Of a stretch of 7,836 bases of DNA, positions 1 through 7,836 are shown piece by piece. Source of the stretch: a virus (Duplodnaviria; Heunggongvirae; Uroviricota; Caudoviricetes); the IMG/VR virus record IMGVR_UViG_2529293142_000019, positions 1 through 7,836 of that record; one strand, 5' to 3'. The first letter of the stretch is position 1; every line of letters starts with the position of its first letter. The notes under the pieces are model-generated. The model ran no database searches. It was not told the DNA's origin and saw nothing but the letters and a program-made list of their open reading frames with translations. Made by a program: the position numbers and the translations under genes.

Positions 1-1431
1 AGTAATATCATTGCCCAGCTCGTGGCGGTCTTGCTGAATGGCAATATCGCGGGTGATGGCCACGATGCTGTCGATTTCTTCTGGATGGGCAAAGACCATC
101 ATATGCCAGTGCACGGTGCCGTCATGGTGAGGCTCCACCGTGCGGATGCCATACCAGCGCAGGCCGTCGCGGTTCAGTTTCTTGCGGACCGCCGCAAAAA
201 ACGTGTTAACCAGGTAATCGCTGGAGTCGCGCATGGTGGCCCCGTTCCATTTGGGATTCGGATGACCGTTCTCTGTTGTGGCGTGGTATTTTGACGGGCA
301 GGTGACAGTCAGAAACACCGCTTTGTCGCCACGGGCTTCGGCCAGAAGTTCCAGTCCCTTCATGGTGGCCATCATTTCTGCCTTACGGTGAACCGGGTTA
401 CTTACTCCCGCGTAATACACTGTCTCGAGATCAATCGTGAAGCCGTCTTCGTTTTCCAGTTCGAAGCTCTTCAGGAAGTCGCGGGTTTTCTCGCGCTGTG
501 CGCGAAACTCGCTTAACGCGTCCTGGCTCAGATAGGGTGATGTTTTTCTGGAAACCAGACAGGCGGCGCGGAGTTGTTCTTCTCTCCACTCGCAACGTAA
601 CAGCCACAGTTTGCGTTTCCACCAGTCCGCACAGGTCAGGCGAAGGATTGCGCCCGGCAGCAGTTCCGTATCCGGTTCGCTCTTGTTCAGGGCTTCGTAA
701 TGTGGCGGCATGTTGTGCAGGCGTAATGCGATACGAGCCAGCATCCGGTAAGCCTTCAACATTACATCCATGGTCAGCTCGCCATCTCTGGCACCAAAGC
801 CATCGCAGAGTGTTTCGAAGGTGCTGCTGAACATCGCCGCGGTCATGGTGGCCAGCATCTGTATCTGGTGCTTGTTGAGCTGCGGCAGGTAAAGCAAATC
901 GTCCAGGCGTTCGCGCCCGGCAAGGGAGCGATAACCCGGTGTCAGCCAGCGTCCGTCAGTGCGATCCAGACGTTCGAATATTTTGCGCAGGGTTCCGCGT
1001 GCATAGCGTTCCGCCTGCCAGCTCTTTTTGCCTTTCTGGCGATCGGCTTCCTGTTTTTTGCGCAGGAAAGAGAGGTGGCGGCTCAGTGGTTCACGCAGAT
1101 AAACAGGTAGTGCCTTTAGTGTGGCAAAGGCACGGGCTACCGGGTCTTGTTCTGTTGCCCGGCGCTTACTGATGATGCTCTGTGCCAGCTTTTCACGCTG
1201 TCCGGCTTCCTCAAGGGATGCCATGAGTTTTTTACCCATGGCGGATTGTGCGAAAAAGGCTTCCTCCTTCGCTTCCTGTTCTTCCTGTTCTTCCTGTGCC
1301 CTTTTGTCCGCCTCAAGGTAGTAACGGATGGCGCGTTGCAGGTCGGTTTCAGTTTCCTGCCTGCGCTCCGTAAATCTGGCCGGATCAATGGCTGGCCGTG
1401 GTTCATTCCAGCTCCATGCAAACTCACTCAT
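1..1431 (-). CDS. Replication initiation endonuclease, P2 gpA-like (HUH rolling-circle Rep); partial, N-terminal ~477 aa, C-terminus lies beyond the left window edge
   Basis: Uninterrupted minus-strand reading frame from ATG at 1431-1429 to position 1 (my own translation; it is missing from the ORF track because no stop falls in the window). Translation begins MSEFAWSWNEPRPAIDPARF and contains GIRTVEPHHDGTVHWHMMVFAHPEE, a His-hydrophobic-His motif typical of HUH Rep endonucleases. The start overlaps the stop of the upstream ORF (ATGA at 1428-1431). Position next to a P2-type int/C/cox switch fits gene A. Confidence 0.8.
   Translation of the reverse strand, partial: MSEFAWSWNEPRPAIDPARFTERRQETETDLQRAIRYYLEADKRAQEEQEEQEAKEEAFFAQSAMGKKLMASLEEAGQREKLAQSIISKRRATEQDPVARAFATLKALPVYLREPLSRHLSFLRKKQEADRQKGKKSWQAERYARGTLRKIFERLDRTDGRWLTPGYRSLAGRERLDDLLYLPQLNKHQIQMLATMTAAMFSSTFETLCDGFGARDGELTMDVMLKAYRMLARIALRLHNMPPHYEALNKSEPDTELLPGAILRLTCADWWKRKLWLLRCEWREEQLRAACLVSRKTSPYLSQDALSEFRAQREKTRDFLKSFELENEDGFTIDLETVYYAGVSNPVHRKAEMMATMKGLELLAEARGDKAVFLTVTCPSKYHATTENGHPNPKWNGATMRDSSDYLVNTFFAAVRKKLNRDGLRWYGIRTVEPHHDGTVHWHMMVFAHPEEIDSIVAITRDIAIQQDRHELGNDIT
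1272..1298. repeat. In-frame 9-bp tandem repeat (cttcctgtt x2 plus cttcctgtg) inside the gpA-like gene
   Basis: Three adjacent near-identical 9-mers on the plus strand; on the minus strand they encode an acidic QEEQEEQE stretch near the gpA N-terminus. Confidence 0.6.
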
Positions 1432-1817
1432 GGCTGGTATCCCGTCACGCGCTGCCACTCCTGCGAGAAGATGGCGGAAAGGCGGTTAAATTCAGCGGTG
1501 TATTCACTCAGCGAGGCACACCCGCCAGCAGTGCGATGCGCCAGCATTGCCGCGAATACGGAGGCCGGGGAGTCGTAATACGCCAGCAGTGATTCGCCGT
1601 GCGGTGTCAGGCAGTGCAACGCCAGTCCGTGTGGTGTGAAGTCCACGCGGTAGCAGTCGTCTACTGTGAAATAAAGGGTATCCACATTCTCCGGTTTTGT
1701 AGTGCGTGCTCTGTTGTCACGACCACGGATGTAAAGATCAAATAATCCCTGAAGAACGGGAGCCAGACGGGTGTCCTGTGTGCGCACCCATCTTGTGAAG
1801 TCATGAGCGTCAATCAT
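1428..1817 (-). CDS. Hypothetical protein (129 aa), translationally coupled to the gpA-like gene
   Basis: ORF with ATG at 1817-1815; its stop TGA (1430-1428) overlaps the gpA ATG as ATGA. Sits in the position of the small ORFs that precede gene A in P2-like phages. No recognisable motif. Confidence 0.55.
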   Translation of the reverse strand: MIDAHDFTRWVRTQDTRLAPVLQGLFDLYIRGRDNRARTTKPENVDTLYFTVDDCYRVDFTPHGLALHCLTPHGESLLAYYDSPASVFAAMLAHRTAGGCASLSEYTAEFNRLSAIFSQEWQRVTGYQP

Positions 1818-1889
1818 GCTGCAATTCTCTTTACTACAGATGTGCGAAGGCCTCCCGCCGCAAGGTGCAGGAAAGGCCCGGAACAGGAA

Positions 1890-2120
1890 TTAATGGAGTT
1901 TGTTTTGCTGCTGGATGAGCTGCTGAAGCTCGCGCAGATCATCCGCCAGATAACTGAAAACAGCGGATGAGTAGAGGTTTGAAAGTTCGCAGCTACGCTC
2001 ATGCAGCATATTGATGTGCATGATTTTAGCGACGCGGAATGCGCGGGAAAGTCTGCGGTTGATTTCAGTCTGGATGTGACGACGCTCCGCGATAGCGCGG
2101 TGCTGTTTGCGGTTTGCCAT
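1890..2120 (-). CDS. Hypothetical small basic protein (76 aa), first gene after the structured non-coding segment
   Basis: ATG at 2120-2118 preceded by AAGAGG about 7 nt upstream (minus strand reads ACAACCAAAGAGGCCACACC-ATG). Translation MANRKQHRAIAERRHIQTEINRRLSRAF... is Arg/Lys/His-rich with helical-looking composition. An alternative 224-aa ORF in another frame across this region looks non-coding. Confidence 0.55.
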   Translation of the reverse strand: MANRKQHRAIAERRHIQTEINRRLSRAFRVAKIMHINMLHERSCELSNLYSSAVFSYLADDLRELQQLIQQQNKLH

Positions 2121-2130
2121 GGTGTGGCCT

Positions 2131-2175
2131 CTTTGGTTGTAAGTTTTGAAAACTCACCATCCAGAGCTGCGAAAC
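2131..2175 (-). promoter_or_regulatory. Box module X: boxA (CTTTGGTTGT, 2131-2140) and boxB (GCTGCGAAAC, 2166-2175) in the leader of the 76-aa ORF; boxA abuts the ribosome-binding site
   Basis: Both 10-mers recur in the same order at 2326-2351 (module Y) and as an inverted copy at 2198-2220 (module M). On the minus-strand RNA, boxA lies immediately 5' of the AGAGG Shine-Dalgarno of the 76-aa ORF. Confidence 0.35.
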
Positions 2176-2183
2176 TGTGGGTG

Positions 2184-2257
2184 GCGAGACGTACGGGGTT
2201 CGCAGTACCGGCAACCAAAGAACCCGGCCCGACCGAAGTCGGCCCCGTACGCCCCGC
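2184..2257 (-). ncRNA. Candidate ~70-nt structured RNA element carrying the inverted box module M, enclosed by a long-range stem; P4 CI-RNA-like by architecture only
   Basis: Perfect 9-bp inverted repeat cgtacgggg (2190-2198) / ccccgtacg (2243-2251), extendable by ggcgag/cccgcc with one G-U on the minus-strand RNA. It encloses a 5-bp hairpin with a UUCG tetraloop on the minus strand (2229-2242) and the inverted boxes at 2198-2220. No ORF with coding character covers it. Confidence 0.3.
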
Positions 2258-2297
2258 CATAATTCTGACGCGAAAAAAACGTGGCAATACAGTACGC

Positions 2298-2320
2298 ACA
2301 AAAAAACCGCTGGCGCGGTT
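2298..2320 (-). terminator. Putative intrinsic terminator on the minus strand (short GC hairpin followed by a U-tract)
   Basis: Plus strand 2305-2320 aaccgc-tggc-gcggtt forms a 6-bp stem with a 4-nt loop; on the minus strand it is followed directly by a T-run (plus-strand A-run 2300-2306). It lies immediately 3' of box module Y on the minus-strand RNA. The stem is short, so strength is uncertain. Confidence 0.35.
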
Positions 2321-2325
2321 GTGCG

Positions 2326-2351
2326 CTTTGGTTGTCAGCAGGCTGCGAAAC
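2326..2351 (-). promoter_or_regulatory. Box module Y: boxA (CTTTGGTTGT, 2326-2335) and boxB (GCTGCGAAAC, 2342-2351) separated by 6 nt
   Basis: Direct repeat of module X with a shorter spacer. Its reverse complement matches module M (2198-2220) over 9 + 7 nt with the same 6-nt spacer. Confidence 0.35.
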
Positions 2352-2456
2352 CCGGCACCCGTTTTATGAGGTGCAGCGAAAATGTAACCTGACTGATTGC
2401 GGCATGGCAAGCGGTTTTTTTGTGAGAACGGCATACTAAAAAATCCTGATACTGCT

Positions 2457-2481
2457 CCGGCCAGCGGTTTGCACTGGCCGG
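2457..2481 (-). other. Perfect 8-bp GC-rich inverted repeat 6 nt downstream of the SPFH gene stop; possible 3' stabilising hairpin or atypical terminator
   Basis: ccggccag (2457-2464) and ctggccgg (2474-2481) with a 9-nt loop. On the minus strand the nearest U-run starts about 14 nt after the stem, so it is not a canonical rho-independent terminator. Confidence 0.3.
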
Positions 2482-2487
2482 GTGTCA

Positions 2488-3318
2488 TTACTTCACGGGA
2501 ACGAACGGAACAGCGGTGTTACTGGTCATGTATTGCGGCAGCGTGCCGTTCCATTTGTTGATCGCTTCCAGCTCCATAACGCCGGGATTCTGGCGCAGAG
2601 CTTCGCCGCGTAAACGAATGGCGTCGGCTTCAGCCTGGGCTTTTGTGCGAATGGCATCGGCCTGTCCGGCAGCTTCTGCGCGCAACATGTTGGCTTCTGC
2701 TTCGCGTTGCTTGACTTCCTGTTCGCGTTGCAGGGTTTTCTGGTTTGCCGTGACTTTGGCGTTAATGCTGTCGATAACGGTTGGCGGATATTCCGGTTTA
2801 CCGACATAAGAGAGGCTCATGACCTGAATACCGATGGGGGTCATCTCTTCCTGAATATCTTTAAGTGCTGAATCCAGCAGTTCAGACTTACCACCGTCGA
2901 TAAACTTATCGGTGGTCATTTTGCTGGCCAGTCGGTTGAGTGCATCGGCGATCTTCTGGCGCAGGTCAGTGTCGGTAATGTCGTCCACGCCTTTGCGGTA
3001 GGTCTGAAACACTGTGGTCACTTTGGATGGATCAACCTTGTAGGCCACGCCGATGTGATAGCCGATGGTTGTGCCATCGCTCATCTGGAAACTGAACGGC
3101 TCATCGTAGGTCTTCATTTGTTTGAAGGTCGGGAAGATGTAAACCTCGGTATTCCAGCCAGTCCAGTAGCGGCCAACGCCAACCACTTCGCCGACGCCTT
3201 TGTCGTCGCCCAGCTTGTTGACTTTGATGCCCACATTACCTGGCTCAACGCGATCGCAACCAACCAACAGGATGGCCGCAAAAAGCGGGATAATCTGAAA
3301 GAGTTTGAGTTTCTTCAT
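2488..3318 (-). CDS. SPFH / band-7 (prohibitin-HflK/C-like) domain lipoprotein, 276 aa
   Basis: N-terminus MKKLKLFQIIPLFAAILLVGCDR has a signal peptide with lipobox LVGC. A central SPFH-like region is followed by an Ala/Glu/Arg/Gln-rich coiled-coil stretch (QREQEVKQREAEANMLRAEAAGQADAIRTKAQAEADAIRLRGEALRQ) typical of SPFH proteins. AAGGA lies about 9 nt upstream of the ATG; the start overlaps the upstream ORF stop as ATGA (3315-3318). Confidence 0.8.
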   Translation of the reverse strand: MKKLKLFQIIPLFAAILLVGCDRVEPGNVGIKVNKLGDDKGVGEVVGVGRYWTGWNTEVYIFPTFKQMKTYDEPFSFQMSDGTTIGYHIGVAYKVDPSKVTTVFQTYRKGVDDITDTDLRQKIADALNRLASKMTTDKFIDGGKSELLDSALKDIQEEMTPIGIQVMSLSYVGKPEYPPTVIDSINAKVTANQKTLQREQEVKQREAEANMLRAEAAGQADAIRTKAQAEADAIRLRGEALRQNPGVMELEAINKWNGTLPQYMTSNTAVPFVPVK

Positions 3319-3518
3319 TGTTTGATTTCCTTGATGTACTTACTGAAAAGGCGAACAACGCCTGCCGGGTACAGCATGGCAATGAAAATGCCCAGCAATA
3401 CCAGGAAGGAGCTGTCTGATGAAATCATTCGGGGGAGTAGTCCTGCATACAGAATGAGAGAGACGAGGACGCATACCAGCGCCCACATGTATGCGCGAAA
3501 CCAGGTCTTTTTGTTCAT
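3315..3518 (-). CDS. Small membrane protein (67 aa, two predicted TM helices), coupled partner of the SPFH lipoprotein
   Basis: Translation MNKKTWFRAYMWALVCVLVSLILYAGLLPRMISSDSSFLVLLGIFIAMLYPAGVV has two hydrophobic segments. ATGA overlaps at both ends (3515-3518 and 3315-3318); AAGAGAG-type Shine-Dalgarno upstream. Confidence 0.6.
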   Translation of the reverse strand: MNKKTWFRAYMWALVCVLVSLILYAGLLPRMISSDSSFLVLLGIFIAMLYPAGVVRLFSKYIKEIKQ

Positions 3519-3733
3519 GTTGATTGCTCTCTTTTGTTATTCAGGAAAAAGTCAAAAACGTTATCGATGCGCATCATAAGTTCGCGCTGCATCGCTTCTG
3601 GTGTTTCCGGTTCGCCAGGCGACCCCAGCGTTGCGCAGAAATCAGCGATCTCGTGTTGAATGAGTTCTTTCAGCGTCAGTAAGGAATTCATGTGTGTGCG
3701 GCGATGCCTGCGTGTGATTCGCCTTCTGCTCAT
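3515..3733 (-). CDS. Hypothetical protein (72 aa) with a highly basic N-terminus
   Basis: ATG at 3733 preceded by AGGAG about 8 nt upstream; its start overlaps the upstream stop as ATGA (3730-3733). Translation begins MSRRRITRRHRRTH. No recognisable motif. Confidence 0.5.
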   Translation of the reverse strand: MSRRRITRRHRRTHMNSLLTLKELIQHEIADFCATLGSPGEPETPEAMQRELMMRIDNVFDFFLNNKREQST

Positions 3734-3933
3734 TTACGCTGCTCCTGTACCTGTCGGATAAGGTTTACCCGCGCCACATTAGTGGCGCAGAAATAAGTGC
3801 CGTCAGTGAGGTAGATGTGGTGTGCATCCTTTTCCGAACGATGTTTGTCGATAGTGGTAATCAGGCGTTCGTCGACCTCGTATTCGCGCCCTCTGGAGGT
3901 AAAGCGAACGACGGGAAAATGCTTAATTGCCAT
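3730..3933 (-). CDS. Hypothetical protein (67 aa from the ATG at 3933; the track ORF extends to a TTG at 3954)
   Basis: ATG at 3933-3931 is preceded by a strong purine-rich Shine-Dalgarno (AAAAAAAGGGGGGCA-ATG on the minus strand). The stop overlaps the next ATG. Confidence 0.5.
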   Translation of the reverse strand: MAIKHFPVVRFTSRGREYEVDERLITTIDKHRSEKDAHHIYLTDGTYFCATNVARVNLIRQVQEQRK

Positions 3934-3959
3934 TGCCCCCCTTTTTTTGTCCAATAACC

Positions 3960-4313
3960 CTATGCGTTAAATACGGCACGTTGCGCGTCATCAATGAATA
4001 CAGCTTGAGAGCGTTCTATCAGGCGGAGATTTGTCAGAAGCTCTGACTCTTTTGTGTGGTAAGGCGTTATCAGGTATTTGCCGTGCAGTTCGGCAATAAT
4101 GGTGTATTGCAGCATCATTGCTGAACCAAGAATATAAATGCAGCGCCCAATGCTGGACGGATTCATGGCTGCAACTGTTGACTGTGTTTTAAGAGTGTCG
4201 ATTTCTTTGCTCTGTTCCTCAATAATTTTAGCTGCGTCAGCGGTGATTTTTGCAATGGTCAGTGCGTGAAGTGCTGCCATGTGTTGGCTATGGTTCATGG
4301 CATCTTTAGCCAT
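3960..4313 (-). CDS. Hypothetical protein (117 aa; alternative start at ATG 4298 giving 112 aa)
   Basis: ORF with ATG at 4313 (GGAAG about 5 nt upstream). The internal ATG at 4298 overlaps the stop of a possible 26-codon upstream micro-ORF as ATGA. No recognisable motif. Confidence 0.5.
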   Translation of the reverse strand: MAKDAMNHSQHMAALHALTIAKITADAAKIIEEQSKEIDTLKTQSTVAAMNPSSIGRCIYILGSAMMLQYTIIAELHGKYLITPYHTKESELLTNLRLIERSQAVFIDDAQRAVFNA

Positions 4314-4467
4314 CTGGTCTTCCGCTTCAGATATTTTTTTAATGTGTCGATGATGCCTTCTTCTTTTGCGTTCATTTTATATCTCCGCTATTTACGTGTG
4401 CGAATACCTCCGTTAATACGGATGGTTTTCACGTTTTCTTATTTAATTTGATGTTTTATTTGTATCG

Positions 4468-4692
4468 TTATTCATCAGAGAAAAAACGCTCGATCTTTTT
4501 CACTGAATGAATAATTCGCATAATTCCAATGGCACAGGCCACCGAAATAATCAGAACAAGCCATGAGATAATATACTCATGCGATATTCCCCAGCTTATA
4601 CGGTTCAATATGTTCCCCGCATTCTGCGGCACAGATAAGCTCGGAAAGCTCGTTAAGTGCATCCAGATCATCAGCGTAAAAAGCCACGTCAT
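4468..4692 (-). CDS. Possible small membrane protein (74 aa); overlaps the upstream ORF out of frame, start uncertain
   Basis: ATG at 4692 with GGAG about 5 nt upstream; the C-terminal half (YIISWLVLIISVACAIGIMRII) is strongly hydrophobic. It overlaps 4577-4692 of the 80-aa ORF in another frame, so one of the two may be spurious or they truly overlap. Confidence 0.3.
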   Translation of the reverse strand: MTWLFTLMIWMHLTSFPSLSVPQNAGNILNRISWGISHEYIISWLVLIISVACAIGIMRIIHSVKKIERFFSDE

Positions 4693-4819
4693 ACAGACTC
4701 CGGATTGCTCTGGTTAATGAGTCACGGGCTGCACGTTCAGCATGAGCGCCTGATGCACTTAAGCGAAAATAAAAACGCTCAAGTGCTTTGTTAATGAGAG
4801 TTTTATATTCTTTGCCCAT
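4577..4819 (-). CDS. Hypothetical protein (80 aa from ATG 4819; the track start at 4822 is a GTG)
   Basis: AAAGGG about 7 nt upstream of the ATG; it follows the upstream stop (TAA at 4831-4833) by a short gap. Translation MGKEYKTLINKALERFYFRL... has protein-like composition. Confidence 0.5.
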   Translation of the reverse strand: MGKEYKTLINKALERFYFRLSASGAHAERAARDSLTRAIRSLYDVAFYADDLDALNELSELICAAECGEHIEPYKLGNIA

Positions 4820-4830
4820 CACAACGCCCT

Positions 4831-5109
4831 TTAATCTGCTTTCTGAATTTCAGCTTCTGAATCCATACAAATAATTTCGATATAGGGTTCATCGCCATTA
4901 ACCTGACGTGCCTTTTCAGCTTCGCTAATGATTTCGCGTACGGTCTGGTACGGAAGTTCCACAAACAATCGCGTGCCGTTCAGATAAAGGTAAGTGGCCA
5001 CATCTTTTTCTGCCGGGACTACAGCATCAATAGCTGATGCGCGTAACAACAACTCACCGCGAAAATCAATAAAGCGGATAAATACACCTTGTGCATGGTC
5101 TTTAGTCAT
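4831..5109 (-). CDS. Hypothetical acidic protein (92 aa from ATG 5109; the track ORF extends to a TTG at 5169)
   Basis: ATG at 5109 preceded by AGGTG about 4 nt upstream and by the upstream stop (TAA-CAGGTGCTTT-ATG). Translation MTKDHAQGVFIRFIDFRGELLLRASAIDAVV... has an acidic C-terminus. Confidence 0.5.
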   Translation of the reverse strand: MTKDHAQGVFIRFIDFRGELLLRASAIDAVVPAEKDVATYLYLNGTRLFVELPYQTVREIISEAEKARQVNGDEPYIEIICMDSEAEIQKAD

Positions 5110-5119
5110 AAAGCACCTG

Positions 5120-5578
5120 TTATAAATCAGCTTGTTTAATAAAACTTTGCCCACGAAGCAGACGATCAACTGTGCGAAGTGCTTCGTATAATGTGAAATC
5201 CTGCCCGAACTGATTGTCGCCGCAGTTCAATGCAAAAATGCGGTTTCCGGTAAATGGATTGCGTGGGCATCTGTGAACTACGATTCCAGCTTTTTCAATC
5301 AGCCAAGTGTGTTCGCCAATTTGTTTTACTGTATGGCCATCTGGCGTTGCGTGCGTCTCGCTTAGGCTGTAGCGAGAGTTGCTACGTGATGCACTGGTAG
5401 TGAAGCGGTTAGCGTGGCGTTCTGCGCCGTTGCGGAAGCGCTGTTGTGAAGAATTGCGCTGTTGCTTCATGTCAAAAACTCCGTACCTGTTTACTTCCCC
5501 GGCATAACGCCCATTTTCAAAATAATTGCGGCGAAATCCCATGTTATTGGGTTCGCTGTTTCGCTGTTGCTTATTCAT
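5120..5578 (-). CDS. Hypothetical protein (152 aa from ATG 5578) with an N-terminal Asn/Gln/Arg/Ser-rich low-complexity region and a C-terminal globular-looking domain
   Basis: ATG at 5578 preceded by AGAGGCACAAAAA-ATG; it starts 11 nt after the stop of the upstream small membrane ORF. The C-terminal part (HTWLIEKAGIVVHRCPRNPFTGNRIFALNCGDNQFGQDFTLYEALRTVDRL) looks folded. The track start at 5605 is a TTG. Confidence 0.5.
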   Translation of the reverse strand: MNKQQRNSEPNNMGFRRNYFENGRYAGEVNRYGVFDMKQQRNSSQQRFRNGAERHANRFTTSASRSNSRYSLSETHATPDGHTVKQIGEHTWLIEKAGIVVHRCPRNPFTGNRIFALNCGDNQFGQDFTLYEALRTVDRLLRGQSFIKQADL

Positions 5579-5589
5579 TTTTTGTGCCT

Positions 5590-5796
5590 CTACCCGATAA
5601 GCCAAATAACAAACGCTATGAGCACCGCGCCAATAGTGGTCGGGAAAAGACCTCTGGTATAGGCGGCGAGGTAATGAACGTTGAGAACAATAAAGCGCTC
5701 TTTTTGTCCTGTTAGCTTGTTAAGCAGATAAATCGCTATTACACCCACTTCCAGGAATACAAGGTTCAGAATGGCGCTGATGATATTGCTGGTCAT
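5590..5796 (-). CDS. Possible small membrane protein (68 aa, two hydrophobic helices); start uncertain
   Basis: The hydrophobic C-terminal segment of track ORF 5590..6045 is MTSNIISAILNLVFLEVGVIAIYLL...IGAVLIAFVIWLIG. The longer N-terminal extension overlaps the Cox-like gene out of frame and looks non-coding. The ATG at 5796 has no clear Shine-Dalgarno, hence low confidence. Confidence 0.4.
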   Translation of the reverse strand: MTSNIISAILNLVFLEVGVIAIYLLNKLTGQKERFIVLNVHYLAAYTRGLFPTTIGAVLIAFVIWLIG

Positions 5797-5806
5797 TTTT
5801 GTGTGT

Positions 5807-6328
5807 TTAGTTGCCTTCGCTGCTTTTGAGTCGCTCCAGCTTTGAACTTCTGCCTGTATAAACTCGCTTACCGTTAATGGTCTGGCAGTCTTCTTTATTA
5901 GCTGGAAAGAACTTTCTTTTCTGGCGGTCATACGTCCAGTAACTTTTCCAGTTGTGCCATTCTGGTGGCTCAAGTTCCGGTAGCTCGTCAGCCAGTGCGT
6001 CCCACTCTTTGGCGTTAAACCACCATACTCCGTCTGAGTTTTCATCTTCCGGGTTTGTGCGCGTCTTGTGTCCCGGCATTTGACCGCGATGAATGGCTAC
6101 GCGCAGTGCAGATTTTGTTAGCCCAATATATGCCGCGCCTTTTTCCAGAGAGCAAAGCCCGGCGATCGGACCATCCAGCCGTAAAGTCGCTCCTTTTTTG
6201 TAGGAACGCTTTTTCTTGTTTTCTTCGTGTTCGTCGTCGTTGGCGGCATCAATGGATCCGCTGAGTGCGTCACTTTCCTGAAGTGGTTGGTGGTCAGATA
6301 ACTCTTTATCGGCAATGAAGTCCCGCAT
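5807..6328 (-). CDS. Cox/excisionase-like HTH DNA-binding protein, first gene of the early operon, unusually long (173 aa) with an acidic N-terminal extension
   Basis: ATG at 6328 preceded by AGAGGA 6 nt upstream, and divergent from the repressor gene. The central segment LCSLEKGAAYIGLTKSALRVAIHRGQMPGHK followed by WWFNAKEW resembles the winged-helix excisionase/Cox-Apl family arrangement. Sits where cox lies in P2. Assignment is from motif resemblance only. Confidence 0.5.
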   Translation of the reverse strand: MRDFIADKELSDHQPLQESDALSGSIDAANDDEHEENKKKRSYKKGATLRLDGPIAGLCSLEKGAAYIGLTKSALRVAIHRGQMPGHKTRTNPEDENSDGVWWFNAKEWDALADELPELEPPEWHNWKSYWTYDRQKRKFFPANKEDCQTINGKRVYTGRSSKLERLKSSEGN

Positions 6329-6390
6329 TTGTTATCCTCTTGCGTTGGTGCGCTTGTCGCGCCTTGTGATGGTTTGTTTTGGCTTGTAAA

Positions 6391-6448
6391 GATAACCAAA
6401 TGGTTATCTTTGTGCGAGAGGTTAATACTCAAATGGTTATCTTGTCAA
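6391..6448. promoter_or_regulatory. Lysis-lysogeny switch region: 14-bp direct-repeat candidate operators plus a consensus -35 for the leftward early promoter
   Basis: caaatggttatctt occurs at 6397-6410 and 6430-6443 (33 bp apart, about three helical turns). The first copy is also part of an inverted repeat gataacc-aaat-ggttatc (6391-6408). The minus strand carries a perfect TTGACA (plus-strand tgtcaa, 6443-6448) abutting repeat 2, with a weak TATTAA candidate -10 (6422-6427) lying between the repeats. In P2 the C repressor binds direct repeats flanking the -10 of Pe. Confidence 0.5.
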
Positions 6449-6774
6449 TAGACTATGCAAAAAAGTTACGTCAGATACGTAAGGCGGAAGGGTTAACACA
6501 AAAGCAGTTTGCGGATATTACTGGGTTGTCTTTGGCAACCATAAGGAATTACGAATCGGGGCAAAAGAACGCTAGAGCAAAAATCGTTGAGGCGGTTCTG
6601 CAAGTCGATCGCTTTGAAAAATACATGCTGTGGCTAATAAAAGATAAGACGCTACCTGTCGCCGGGCAGATTGCACCGGCTCTCTCTCTTGATGGCTCTA
6701 TTCAGTCGGAGGGCGATCAGGTTTCAATCGGCATTACCCAAAAATCACCCCGATCAGGCCGCAATGTTGGCTGA
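6433..6774 (+). CDS. Immunity repressor, P2 C-like, HTH (XRE-type), 113 aa from ATG 6433 (the ORF is open from a TTG at 6379; an alternative ATG is at 6400)
   Basis: HTH motif LTQKQFADITGLSLATIRNYESG. The C-terminal region KYMLWLIKDKTLPVAGQIAPALSLDG resembles the P2 C repressor as I recall it. Divergent from the Cox-like gene and directly upstream of int on the same strand, as in P2 (C then int). GAGAGG lies 11 nt upstream of ATG 6433. Confidence 0.75.
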   Translation: MVILSIDYAKKLRQIRKAEGLTQKQFADITGLSLATIRNYESGQKNARAKIVEAVLQVDRFEKYMLWLIKDKTLPVAGQIAPALSLDGSIQSEGDQVSIGITQKSPRSGRNVG

Positions 6775-6843
6775 CTCTACACATTGAGCGAATTACATAT
6801 CGCAAGGAGTGTTTAGTTAATTTATCCGTTGGAGGGGCTAATC

Positions 6844-7836
6844 ATGTCGATTAAGCAACTCAAAGACGGACGTTATCAGGTCGATGTCAGACCGCAGGGG
6901 GCGGAAGGAAAGCGGATTCGAAAAATCTTTGCCCTGAAATCAAAGGCTCAGGAGTTTGAGAAGTATGTGTTACAGAACTTTCATGACAAGCCATGGCAGG
7001 CTAAGCCAGCTGATCAGCGGCGATTATCAGAGCTGCTTGATGCGTGGTGGATGCTTGATGGGCGTAATCAGGCTTACGGGGATAGCTACAGGGTTAGGCT
7101 AGGGAAGGTTGTTCGTGAAATGGGAGATCCTCGCGCCAGTCAGATGACGCGAAAATTTATGCTTGAATATCGGTCAGAGAAATTACAGGCCGGATTAATG
7201 CCGTCCAGTATTAATCGTGACTTATGCGTACTGTCTACCATGTTCACGGTGCTGATTGAAGCTGAGGTCTTTCACAACGCGAACCCTGTACGCGGTATAC
7301 GAAAACTGAAAGTTCAGAACACAGAGATGGCCTTTCTTTCTGATGATGAGATTGAACGGCTTCTTGAGCGACTGGAGGGTGATGCGCGTCGTGTTGCCAT
7401 TCTGTGTCTTTCTACTGGTGCCCGATGGAGTGAAGCATCGGAACTACGTGGAGAGCATATCGTTGGCAACCGGGTGACGTTCTTTAACACCAAAAACGGA
7501 AAATCCCGTTCGGTTCCTGTGGCGGATTCGGTCGTGCCTCTGATTAAAACCCGTCGAACGGGGTTATTGTATCAGGTTGATTATCTGAAGTTCCGGGAGA
7601 TTCTTCAGGAGGTGAAACCGGATTTGCCGAAGGGGCAGGCTACGCATGTCATGCGTCATACGTTTGCCACACACTTTATGATGAATGGCGGAAATATTGT
7701 TACGTTGCAACGAATCCTGGGGCACGCAACGATTCAGCAAACAATGACGTACGCTCATTTTTCGCCGGACTTTTTACAGGACGCGATCAACTTTAATCCG
7801 CTGGCTGAAAGTGTCCATAAACTGTCCATCGATTAG
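6844..7836 (+). CDS. int: Tyrosine integrase (phage integrase family, P2 Int-like), 330 aa
   Basis: GGAGG 8 nt upstream of ATG 6844 (the track start at 6829 is a TTG). The N-terminus MSIKQLKDGRYQVDVRPQG parallels P2 Int. C-terminal catalytic signature present: ARWSE (Arg), HVMRHTFATHF (His-x-x-Arg), LGHATIQQTMTYAHF (catalytic Tyr). The stop TAG is at 7834-7836, the window end. Confidence 0.9.
   Translation: MSIKQLKDGRYQVDVRPQGAEGKRIRKIFALKSKAQEFEKYVLQNFHDKPWQAKPADQRRLSELLDAWWMLDGRNQAYGDSYRVRLGKVVREMGDPRASQMTRKFMLEYRSEKLQAGLMPSSINRDLCVLSTMFTVLIEAEVFHNANPVRGIRKLKVQNTEMAFLSDDEIERLLERLEGDARRVAILCLSTGARWSEASELRGEHIVGNRVTFFNTKNGKSRSVPVADSVVPLIKTRRTGLLYQVDYLKFREILQEVKPDLPKGQATHVMRHTFATHFMMNGGNIVTLQRILGHATIQQTMTYAHFSPDFLQDAINFNPLAESVHKLSID

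Follow-up and report, generated by a model that had tools for sequence, protein, structure and literature searches.

Few SPFH proteins have a defined job, although they rank with the most widely distributed scaffolds of membranes. Many phage genome papers mention an 'SPFH/HflK-C-like lipoprotein' and call its role unclear, and literature searches for a tested function of phage SPFH proteins returned genome-annotation remarks alone, plus one paper on Pasteurella virulence. The closest described system is the gene pair of phage P88 encoding gp12 (YP_009113055, 'lipoprotein' or 'putative SPFH domain protein') and gp11 (YP_009113054, 'membrane protein'). A pair in the same order, with the same overlap and at the same position in the early region, was analyzed here in the 7,836-nucleotide stretch of IMG/VR virus record IMGVR_UViG_2529293142_000019 (positions 1 to 7,836, hereafter the window). 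By its sequence, the window comes from a P88-like, P2-type prophage of Escherichia coli (Xuanwuvirus, Peduoviridae) and covers the lysogeny switch and early region; the nearest phages are vB_EcoM-569R5, PV468777 (93% identity) and P88. The pair comprises a 276-residue SPFH lipoprotein, 99.3% identical to gp12, and a 67-residue protein with two transmembrane (TM) segments, 98.5% identical to gp11. Nothing of substance distinguishes the P88 pair from that of the window; the neighbor upstream of the pair does differ, being ead/Ea22-like in P88, which indicates a mosaic context. The genes are already deposited (GenBank, RefSeq as P88 gp11 and gp12, and PHROGs), and the window holds another copy of a catalogued, uncharacterized pair.

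The two genes appear to encode one unit, since in approximately 15% of distant representatives the SPFH protein carries the two-TM domain fused at its own N-terminus, and the small open reading frame (ORF) would be a detachable N-terminal domain of the SPFH protein. This reading of the small ORF appears not to have been stated in searchable papers and is an incremental point of comparative genomics. Relatives were collected by an exhaustive HMMER search over 1.84 billion cluster representatives (50%-identity clusters), which returned 2,908 at E <= 0.001 and 222 at E <= 1e-30. The fused form accounts for approximately 20 of the best 150 relatives (145 full-length), which are 320-390 residues long owing to an N-terminal extension. 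The order in the fused proteins is two TM helices with a loop of the form P-x-[LM]-[ILV]-S-[SA]-x-[ST], a basic linker, a hydrophobic or lipobox segment and the SPFH body. A hidden Markov model (HMM) built from the fused N-termini scored the free small proteins of the window, a P1-like element and an Stx2 phage at 29.8, 44.3 and 51.4 bits, while the maxima obtained with 1,000 segment-preserving shuffles were 19.8, 20.4 and 11.3 bits, respectively. In contig L107 the fused form is one continuous ORF of 383 residues. The AlphaFold2 model of a fused homologue contains N-terminal helices at residues 2-27, 32-52 and 59-73, with a predicted local distance difference test (pLDDT) score of about 70-90, followed by the SPFH domain. 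In the fusions, the third helix would carry the SPFH domain outward, in agreement with the export signal that the lipoprotein has in the split form. Relatives with three TM segments in one fused chain would necessarily be located in the inner membrane.

In Proteobacteria, Leptospira, Bacteroidota and Firmicutes alike, the free genes were found side by side or overlapping. The pair is kept in all 59 of the 59 P88-type loci of IMG/VR, the small gene being frameshifted in one (L019). In Stx2a phage LC567829 a 62-residue two-TM ORF that is not annotated (locus L002, 3467-3655, minus strand) overlaps the start of the SPFH gene, and in the P1-like element, the SPFH type of which is common to 24 IMG/VR loci, a 78-residue two-TM ORF extends 20 nt into the SPFH gene. 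Records of Stx2 phages label the SPFH gene 'serine protease', a label to which the domain content gives no support. A survey of one genome per species, drawn from an alignment of 17 closer sequences, covered 31 loci, in species that include members of Enterobacterales, Xanthomonadales, Sutterella, Leptospira, Flavobacterium and Oscillospiraceae. A two-TM ORF lies immediately upstream in 22 of these loci, 20 of which match the HMM at E < 0.01; one further locus is fused and one has a 29-residue upstream fragment alone.

The larger protein of the window matches the Pfam Band_7 profile (PF01145) over positions 2-176 of 176 with E 5.7e-31 and 108.4 bits against a cut-off of 23.6, and belongs to PHROG 200 'lipoprotein' (3.6e-112). 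The AlphaFold2 model (mean pLDDT 91.2) consists of an alpha/beta core followed by a single 65-residue helix (residues 179-243) and a second helix in the tail (residues 245-255). Over 87 sequences, W256 of the K-W-x-G-x-L-P tail motif is invariant and G258 and P261 are at least 90% conserved, a pattern compatible with, although no proof of, a cap. Foldseek comparison of the model with the Protein Data Bank (PDB) placed HflK, HflC, prohibitin, erlin and stomatin on top, with flotillin, QmcA and major vault protein also present, all with probability 1.00 at 14-18% identity; a sequence-only search of the PDB returned HflK and a prohibitin fragment and nothing else. By its modeled fold, the protein is a full-length member of the SPFH superfamily with the domain plan of the cage formers HflK/C, prohibitin, erlin and stomatin. 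The NCBIfam matches to HflK, HflC and FloT were all sub-threshold (hflC 25.7 versus 134.4 and hflK 23.5 versus 159.4, the latter values being the equivalog cut-offs), and a second SPFH paralogue, as in an HflK/HflC-type pair, is absent from both the cassette and the window, which contain one SPFH gene. As judged from these comparisons, the 276-residue protein is neither an HflK nor an HflC orthologue.

Export and lipid anchoring of the SPFH protein are predicted by sequence rules. The signal peptide MKKLKLFQIIPLFAAILLVGC ends in L-V-G-C (Cys codon 3256-3258) and is followed by the residues DR, fitting the lipobox pattern [LVI][ASTVI][GAS]C. A lipobox is present in 111 of the 145 full-length family representatives, and the lipobox Cys is at least 90% conserved in one family alignment (A3). 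The residue at position +2 after the Cys is Asp (codon 3253-3255), and C-D-R is found at the predicted lipid-anchor site in the window and in every E. coli-type copy examined. Asp at this position is the enterobacterial signal for retention in the inner membrane (the Lol-avoidance rule).

The hydropathy profile of the 67-residue protein revealed hydrophobic segments at approximately residues 6-33 and 34-58, with basic residues at either end. The protein belongs to PHROG 1130 'membrane protein' (1.3e-22), and its loop, LLPRMISSDSS, agrees with the family consensus P-x-[LM]-[ILV]-S-[SA]. Based on the positive-inside rule, the predicted topology is N-in/C-in with the conserved loop in the periplasm. 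The protein matched no Pfam family at E <= 0.01, the fused N-termini likewise belong to none, and NCBIfam has no model for the two-TM domain. The Pfam matches to RseC_MucC, DUF2207_C and Holin_SPP1 obtained at E <= 1 with the small protein and the fused N-termini were rejected as compositional, generic look-alikes of a TM hairpin. An initial annotation of this DNA had described an SPFH-domain lipoprotein with an LVGC lipobox and a coiled-coil tail next to a 67-residue two-helix membrane protein; the Pfam and PHROG 200 matches, the lipobox and the modeled helix 179-243 bear out the former, and the two hydrophobic segments and the PHROG 1130 match bear out the latter.

The pair is accessory and horizontally exchanged among P2-like, lambdoid and P1-like phages. 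Comparison with PV468777 by blastn, with junctions placed by eye, showed homology to position 2424 of the window that resumes at 3540, with 25 unrelated bp in between. The indel comprises neither more nor less than the hairpin, both genes of the pair and the 7 final, overlapped codons of the 72-residue ORF, which stops 7 codons sooner in the empty-site relative; the 74-residue and 72-residue ORFs are themselves outside the indel. Among otherwise similar phages the pair comes and goes as one unit, as this exact 1,115-bp indel illustrates. No repeats flank the indel junctions, and transposon-like mobility was rejected on this ground. In Xuanwuvirus P88_4B11 and 520873 the pair is absent with no other gene in its place, and a hotspot for alternative cargo was likewise rejected, the site being empty in the relatives examined. 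A survey of 5,426 complete E. coli genomes found at least 80% of the flanking isrK-C4-derepression segment in 1153 and at least 80% of the cassette in 145, while some part of the SPFH gene occurs in 575 (about 10%); 226 of the SPFH-gene match sites are on plasmids. The uropathogen E. coli UTI89 carries the cassette at 91.8% identity (NZ_CP064825.1, 942189-943285). In Stx2-converting lambdoid phages the SPFH gene, at 92% nucleotide identity, lies beside int-xis, and in P1-like elements, at 93% amino-acid identity, beside ban. The initial annotation had named the presence of the pair in essentially all P2-family genomes as the finding that would make it core; this is clearly not the case, empty sites being found among the relatives. 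The cassette is real, was correctly described by that annotation, and is an ordinary accessory element.

The start of the SPFH gene is joined to the stop of the 67-residue ORF by an ATGA overlap (3315-3318), and the start of the latter is joined in the same way to the stop of the upstream 72-residue ORF (3515-3518). A third overlap (3730-3733) joins the 74-residue ORF, making a coupled chain of four ORFs rather than two. The ORF coordinates and ATGA coupling given in the initial annotation are confirmed. A crude consensus scan, which is weak evidence, found no promoter-like (sigma-70-like) site ahead of the pair in the P88-like, Stx2 or P1-like backbones. In the P2 paradigm the early promoter on the Cox side is shut off by the C repressor in the lysogen. 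Since no promoter-like site was found and the start of the pair is ATGA-coupled to the preceding early gene, the simplest reading is that the cassette is transcribed from the Cox-side early promoter, that is, with the C-repressed early lytic operon and not in the resting prophage. The classification as a strict moron is not supported, the cassette lacking a detected promoter-like site and being translationally coupled to early genes; of the earlier proposal of an accessory gene (moron), the accessory part stands, with the indel and the counts of 145 versus 1153 genomes behind it.

Directly downstream of the SPFH gene is a hairpin with a perfect 8-bp stem, CCGGCCAG/CTGGCCGG, at 2457-2481. The 91-nt hairpin region folds at -27 kcal/mol (z = -2.4 versus shuffles). 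Its U-run lies 13 nt beyond the stem, and the hairpin is missing from the output of the terminator scan. The hairpin is strong but is not a canonical intrinsic terminator, and its candidacy as the operon terminator was rejected as unproven given the lack of an adjacent U-tract and of a call by the scan. The strong GC hairpin of the initial annotation is consequently upheld as a structure and not as a listed terminator. The same annotation had placed the pair at the end of the early operon, a placement that fails because the isrK/C4 unit and the replication gene continue on the same strand, the order downstream of the cassette being isrK, C4, the derepression ORF, the 129-residue ORF and the replication endonuclease gene.

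The features of the window are collected in Table 1; between the Cox-like gene and the pair, the minus strand has a run of small early ORFs. The Cox-like protein is approximately twice as long as the Pfam Phage_Cox profile (87 positions), which it matches at residues 58-129. The extension at its N-terminus is acidic, and its DNA is 98.5% conserved relative to PV468777. P88 has another Cox-type regulator, of 141 residues, unlike that of the window. The isrK RNA, C4 RNA and derepression ORF look like an antisense-RNA-controlled antirepressor unit of the P1 immI type (c4-icd-ant) situated within a P2-like early region. Sigma-70-like sites are located ahead of isrK (2410-2381) and ahead of the C4 RNA (2287-2259), and a weak match to the c4-a1b1 target overlaps isrK. 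A 224-residue ORF (1814-2488, minus strand) spanning isrK and C4 is probably a spurious protein call on RNA genes, as is probably the RefSeq 'ash family protein' pseudogene called over the isrK/C4 RNAs in E. coli genomes (locus L088, 8747-9010).

Table 1. Features of the window, with positions, strand and the basis of each assignment.
Feature	Position	Strand	Basis or remark
Integrase	6829-7836	+	
C-type helix-turn-helix repressor	6379-6774	+	
Cox-like protein, 173 residues	5807-6328	-	
74-residue and 72-residue early ORFs	within 3515-3954	-	PHROGs 3459 and 4144, function not known for either
Accessory cassette, 1,115 bp: hairpin, SPFH gene, two-TM gene, ribosome-binding-site region and final 7 codons of the 72-residue ORF	2425-3539	-	blastn and by-eye junctions versus PV468777
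Two-TM membrane protein, 67 residues, loop LLPRMISSDSS	3315-3518	-	ORF, hydropathy, PHROG 1130
SPFH/Band-7 lipoprotein, 276 residues	2488-3318	-	Pfam, PHROG, AlphaFold2, Foldseek
Lipoprotein signal peptide (predicted), lipobox LVGC	3256-3318	-	read from sequence
SPFH (Band 7) domain, residues 23-209	2692-3252	-	Pfam envelope; alpha/beta core in AlphaFold2 model
Long C-terminal helix, residues 179-255 (coiled-coil 'wall' region), then K-W-x-G-x-L-P tail motif	2554-2784	-	AlphaFold2
GC-rich hairpin directly 3' of the SPFH stop codon	2457-2481	-	within indel
isrK RNA	2300-2374	-	RF01394, 65.9 bits
C4 antisense RNA	2177-2264	-	RF01695, 87.1 bits
'Derepression protein' ORF, 76 residues	1890-2120	-	
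Conserved 129-residue ORF	after derepression ORF, before replication endonuclease gene	-	
gpA-like replication endonuclease gene, 5' part	left edge of window	-	

The SPFH family was found in 765 of approximately 50,700 deposited phage records, which include the strictly lytic groups Kayvirus, Vequintavirinae, Ounavirinae, N4-like Schitoviridae, Bruynoghevirus and Bcepfunavirus. More remote homologues are present in viruses of haloarchaea. The same two-TM partner accompanies the SPFH gene in the lytic phages Pastis (N4-like), Maja (Bcepfunavirus), Hena1 (Vequintavirinae, with one ORF in between) and Gekk3-15. In Erwinia phage Pastis the partner gene is present and not annotated (locus L087, 3007-3210). 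Three genes upstream of that cassette is a coding sequence annotated 'CLP protease' (L087, 720-1466), which recalls the ClpP-class protease domain of long NfeD proteins, the partners of cellular SPFH proteins, and may be a coincidence. Early or DNA-metabolism genes surround the SPFH gene in 4 of the 5 lytic-phage contexts with informative neighbor annotation, the exception being phage K; in Pae-1 the SPFH gene is just upstream of a terminase-family gene, and the neighbors in Gekk3-15 are uninformative. Since homologues are found in hundreds of phage records, many of them of strictly lytic phages, a lysogeny-specific role is doubtful. A physical role that does not depend on the host, rather than mimicry of one host regulator, is favored by the spread through strictly lytic phages and through viruses of Gram-negative, Gram-positive and, distantly, archaeal hosts. 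The lysogeny-centered candidate roles envisaged in the initial annotation, either in the HflK/C-FtsH decision or in exclusion by the lysogen, are weakened by the presence of the family in strictly lytic phages.

Taken as a whole, the best explanation is that the two genes provide one membrane device, carried as optional cargo of a P88-like prophage and conferring a benefit at the level of the envelope; we regard this explanation as about evenly balanced between right and wrong, and its last step as much less secure. After export and acylation the SPFH domain would remain at the inner membrane on its periplasmic side, as in HflK/C, and the SPFH protein would pair approximately 1:1 with the two-TM protein. 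The latter would supply the transmembrane 'fence' or palisade that a lipid anchor lacks, and the complex may oligomerize to a ring or dome walling off a patch of the inner membrane. In the prophage of the window, the pair would be made with the Cox-to-A early lytic transcript and not in the resting lysogen. The most speculative step is a self-contained benefit, in which the inner membrane and proton-motive force might be kept against premature lysis or membrane-targeting abortive infection or, at the same step, later-arriving phage genomes might be barred, with no mimicry of a particular host regulator. As to the benefit, we rank an envelope function in the infected cell first, followed in order by lysogen defense, modulation of FtsH/HflKC, lysis timing and a virulence lipoprotein.

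Several points weigh against the explanation of the pair as one early-expressed membrane device. No experiment on any member of this SPFH subfamily was found in the searchable literature, and the functional steps are inferred; oligomerization, acylation, localization and the 1:1 complex are predictions from sequence and a single-chain model. The partner is absent from 7 of the 31 loci of the species survey, namely from a Shigella flexneri and an E. coli chromosome (L090 and L091), four distant loci and a truncated pseudogene, and Kayvirus, Bruynoghevirus and Ounavirinae have an unrelated small ORF or none as partner. The two chromosomal loci each encode the SPFH lipoprotein without the two-TM partner, and the pseudogene, in Candidatus Symbiopectobacterium (L097), is truncated at the N-terminus. 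The promoter scan was crude, and the lysogen may express the pair from a weak promoter or from one that is not of the sigma-70 type. Lastly, a prophage-borne HflK/C-like protein of Pasteurella has been reported to act from the lysogen (PMC9872710).

In a bolder form, held only tentatively and as rather unlikely to be correct in full, the pair may be a self-sufficient 'split HflK-like' cage that many unrelated temperate and lytic phages build early on the periplasmic face of the inner membrane, where it would fence off a patch and serve as general superinfection exclusion or as a shield against membrane-targeting abortive-infection effectors. If true, this would define a widespread and so far unrecognized class of phage device and the first SPFH cage with a transmembrane palisade contributed by a separate subunit.

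Defense of the lysogen, with the pair expressed from the prophage and acting at the inner membrane, through exclusion or abortive infection, to block superinfecting phages, is unlikely but retains several points in its favor. The patchy accessory distribution and the exchange among unrelated phages of one host are typical of competition genes, a location at the periplasmic face of the envelope fits, and in the Vi01-like phage PhiSH19 the SPFH gene adjoins an annotated superinfection-exclusion gene. Opposed to this are the ATGA coupling to a C-repressed early operon with no promoter-like site ahead of the pair, and the abundance of the family in strictly lytic phages, for which there is no lysogen to defend. 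A further point against it is that a search of nine early-region proteins against PADLOC-DB 2.0 matched no model for eight, the SPFH protein included, while the 67-residue protein gave only a weak, sub-threshold match to PDC-M18B (E 0.0078, no passing stretch). Exclusion by T4 imm and sp takes place during lytic growth. By analogy, exclusion during lytic growth remains compatible with the data and is included in the best explanation.

Still less likely is modulation of FtsH, in which the SPFH protein of the phage would enter the host HflK/C assembly around it, or compete with that assembly, and thereby alter the degradation of phage or host membrane proteins and, with it, developmental decisions or protein stability, as has been suggested in several genome papers. 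HflK and HflC are the closest solved structures by sequence and fold, the phage protein would be on the same side of the membrane to judge from its lipobox, and weak NCBIfam matches to hflC and hflK were obtained. However, these scores are far under the equivalog cut-offs, the 17-18% identity to HflK/C makes mixed oligomers unlikely, and the single SPFH gene is not the pair of the HflK/HflC type. The family is also present in lytic phages, which have no lysogeny decision, and distantly in haloarchaeal viruses, and the region has a P2-type C/Cox switch in which the scanned ORFs gave no match to a CII-type family (Pfam, PHROG).

A role in lysis timing, with the scaffold confining holin or spanin components of the inner membrane and setting the moment of lysis, is improbable. 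It draws on Staphylococcus phage K, in which mbpS (SPFH) and the small membrane-protein gene mbpV are directly after holin and endolysin; even there the copy is a separate unit between annotated terminators, and the P88-like, Stx2, P1-like, N4-like, Vequintavirinae, Ounavirinae and Bcepfunavirus copies are far from lysis cassettes, among early or DNA-metabolism genes. Least probable is a lysogenic-conversion or virulence lipoprotein, an acylated protein released, for example in vesicles, to act on the animal host: prophage-borne, HflK/C-like PM0222 of Pasteurella multocida is reported to be associated with outer-membrane vesicles, to be a TLR1/2 agonist and to be needed for full virulence (PMC9872710), but PM0222 is likened to the subfamily of the window by description only, the +2 Asp, like the fused relatives with three TM segments, speaks for retention in the inner membrane, the consensus scan found no promoter of the pair's own, and environmental and lytic phages of hosts other than animal pathogens widely carry the family.

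For the window itself, the main outcome is that an optional cassette, in a prophage family common in E. coli, is now correctly annotated. Beyond it, the small upstream ORF, often unannotated as in Stx2 phages and Pastis, would be the other half of the unit, and a periplasm-facing SPFH domain at the inner membrane, as predicted, together with the early, lytic gene context offer testable starting points.

Apart from P88, four known systems invite comparison. The E. coli HflK/HflC-FtsH system resembles the phage protein in the SPFH core, the long helix, the C-terminal tail and a periplasmic SPFH domain, the last being inferred for the phage protein. HflK and HflC have an N-terminal TM helix, whereas the phage protein is predicted to have a lipid anchor and has a separate two-TM partner; moreover, they are two paralogues and the cassette has one SPFH gene, the identity is 17-18%, and the phage protein was compared by sequence and fold alone. 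The SPFH-NfeD operons, E. coli QmcA-YbbJ (PDB 8z5g) and Bacillus subtilis FloT-NfeD2, likewise have an SPFH gene adjacent to, co-oriented with and co-transcribed with the gene of a small polytopic membrane protein, and QmcA is among the fold matches of the phage protein (Foldseek rank 34). Since the phage partner has no NfeD/OB-fold domain (no Pfam match, and 67 residues are too short), the pair of the window is not an SPFH-NfeD pair. In addition, QmcA faces the cytoplasm, whereas the phage SPFH protein is predicted to be exported. MbpS/MbpV of Staphylococcus Kayvirus is similar in that the SPFH gene is preceded by an overlapping gene for a small membrane protein, but the SPFH identity is approximately 25%, MbpV, of 102 residues, has a single TM segment and no relationship to the two-TM family (3.6 bits), and the genes are beside lysis genes. 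Finally, T4 Imm and Sp and other phage membrane exclusion proteins, with which no sequence relationship to the pair of the window was detected (no Pfam or PADLOC match), provide an analogy alone, as small, early accessory proteins that are located in the inner membrane or face the periplasm.

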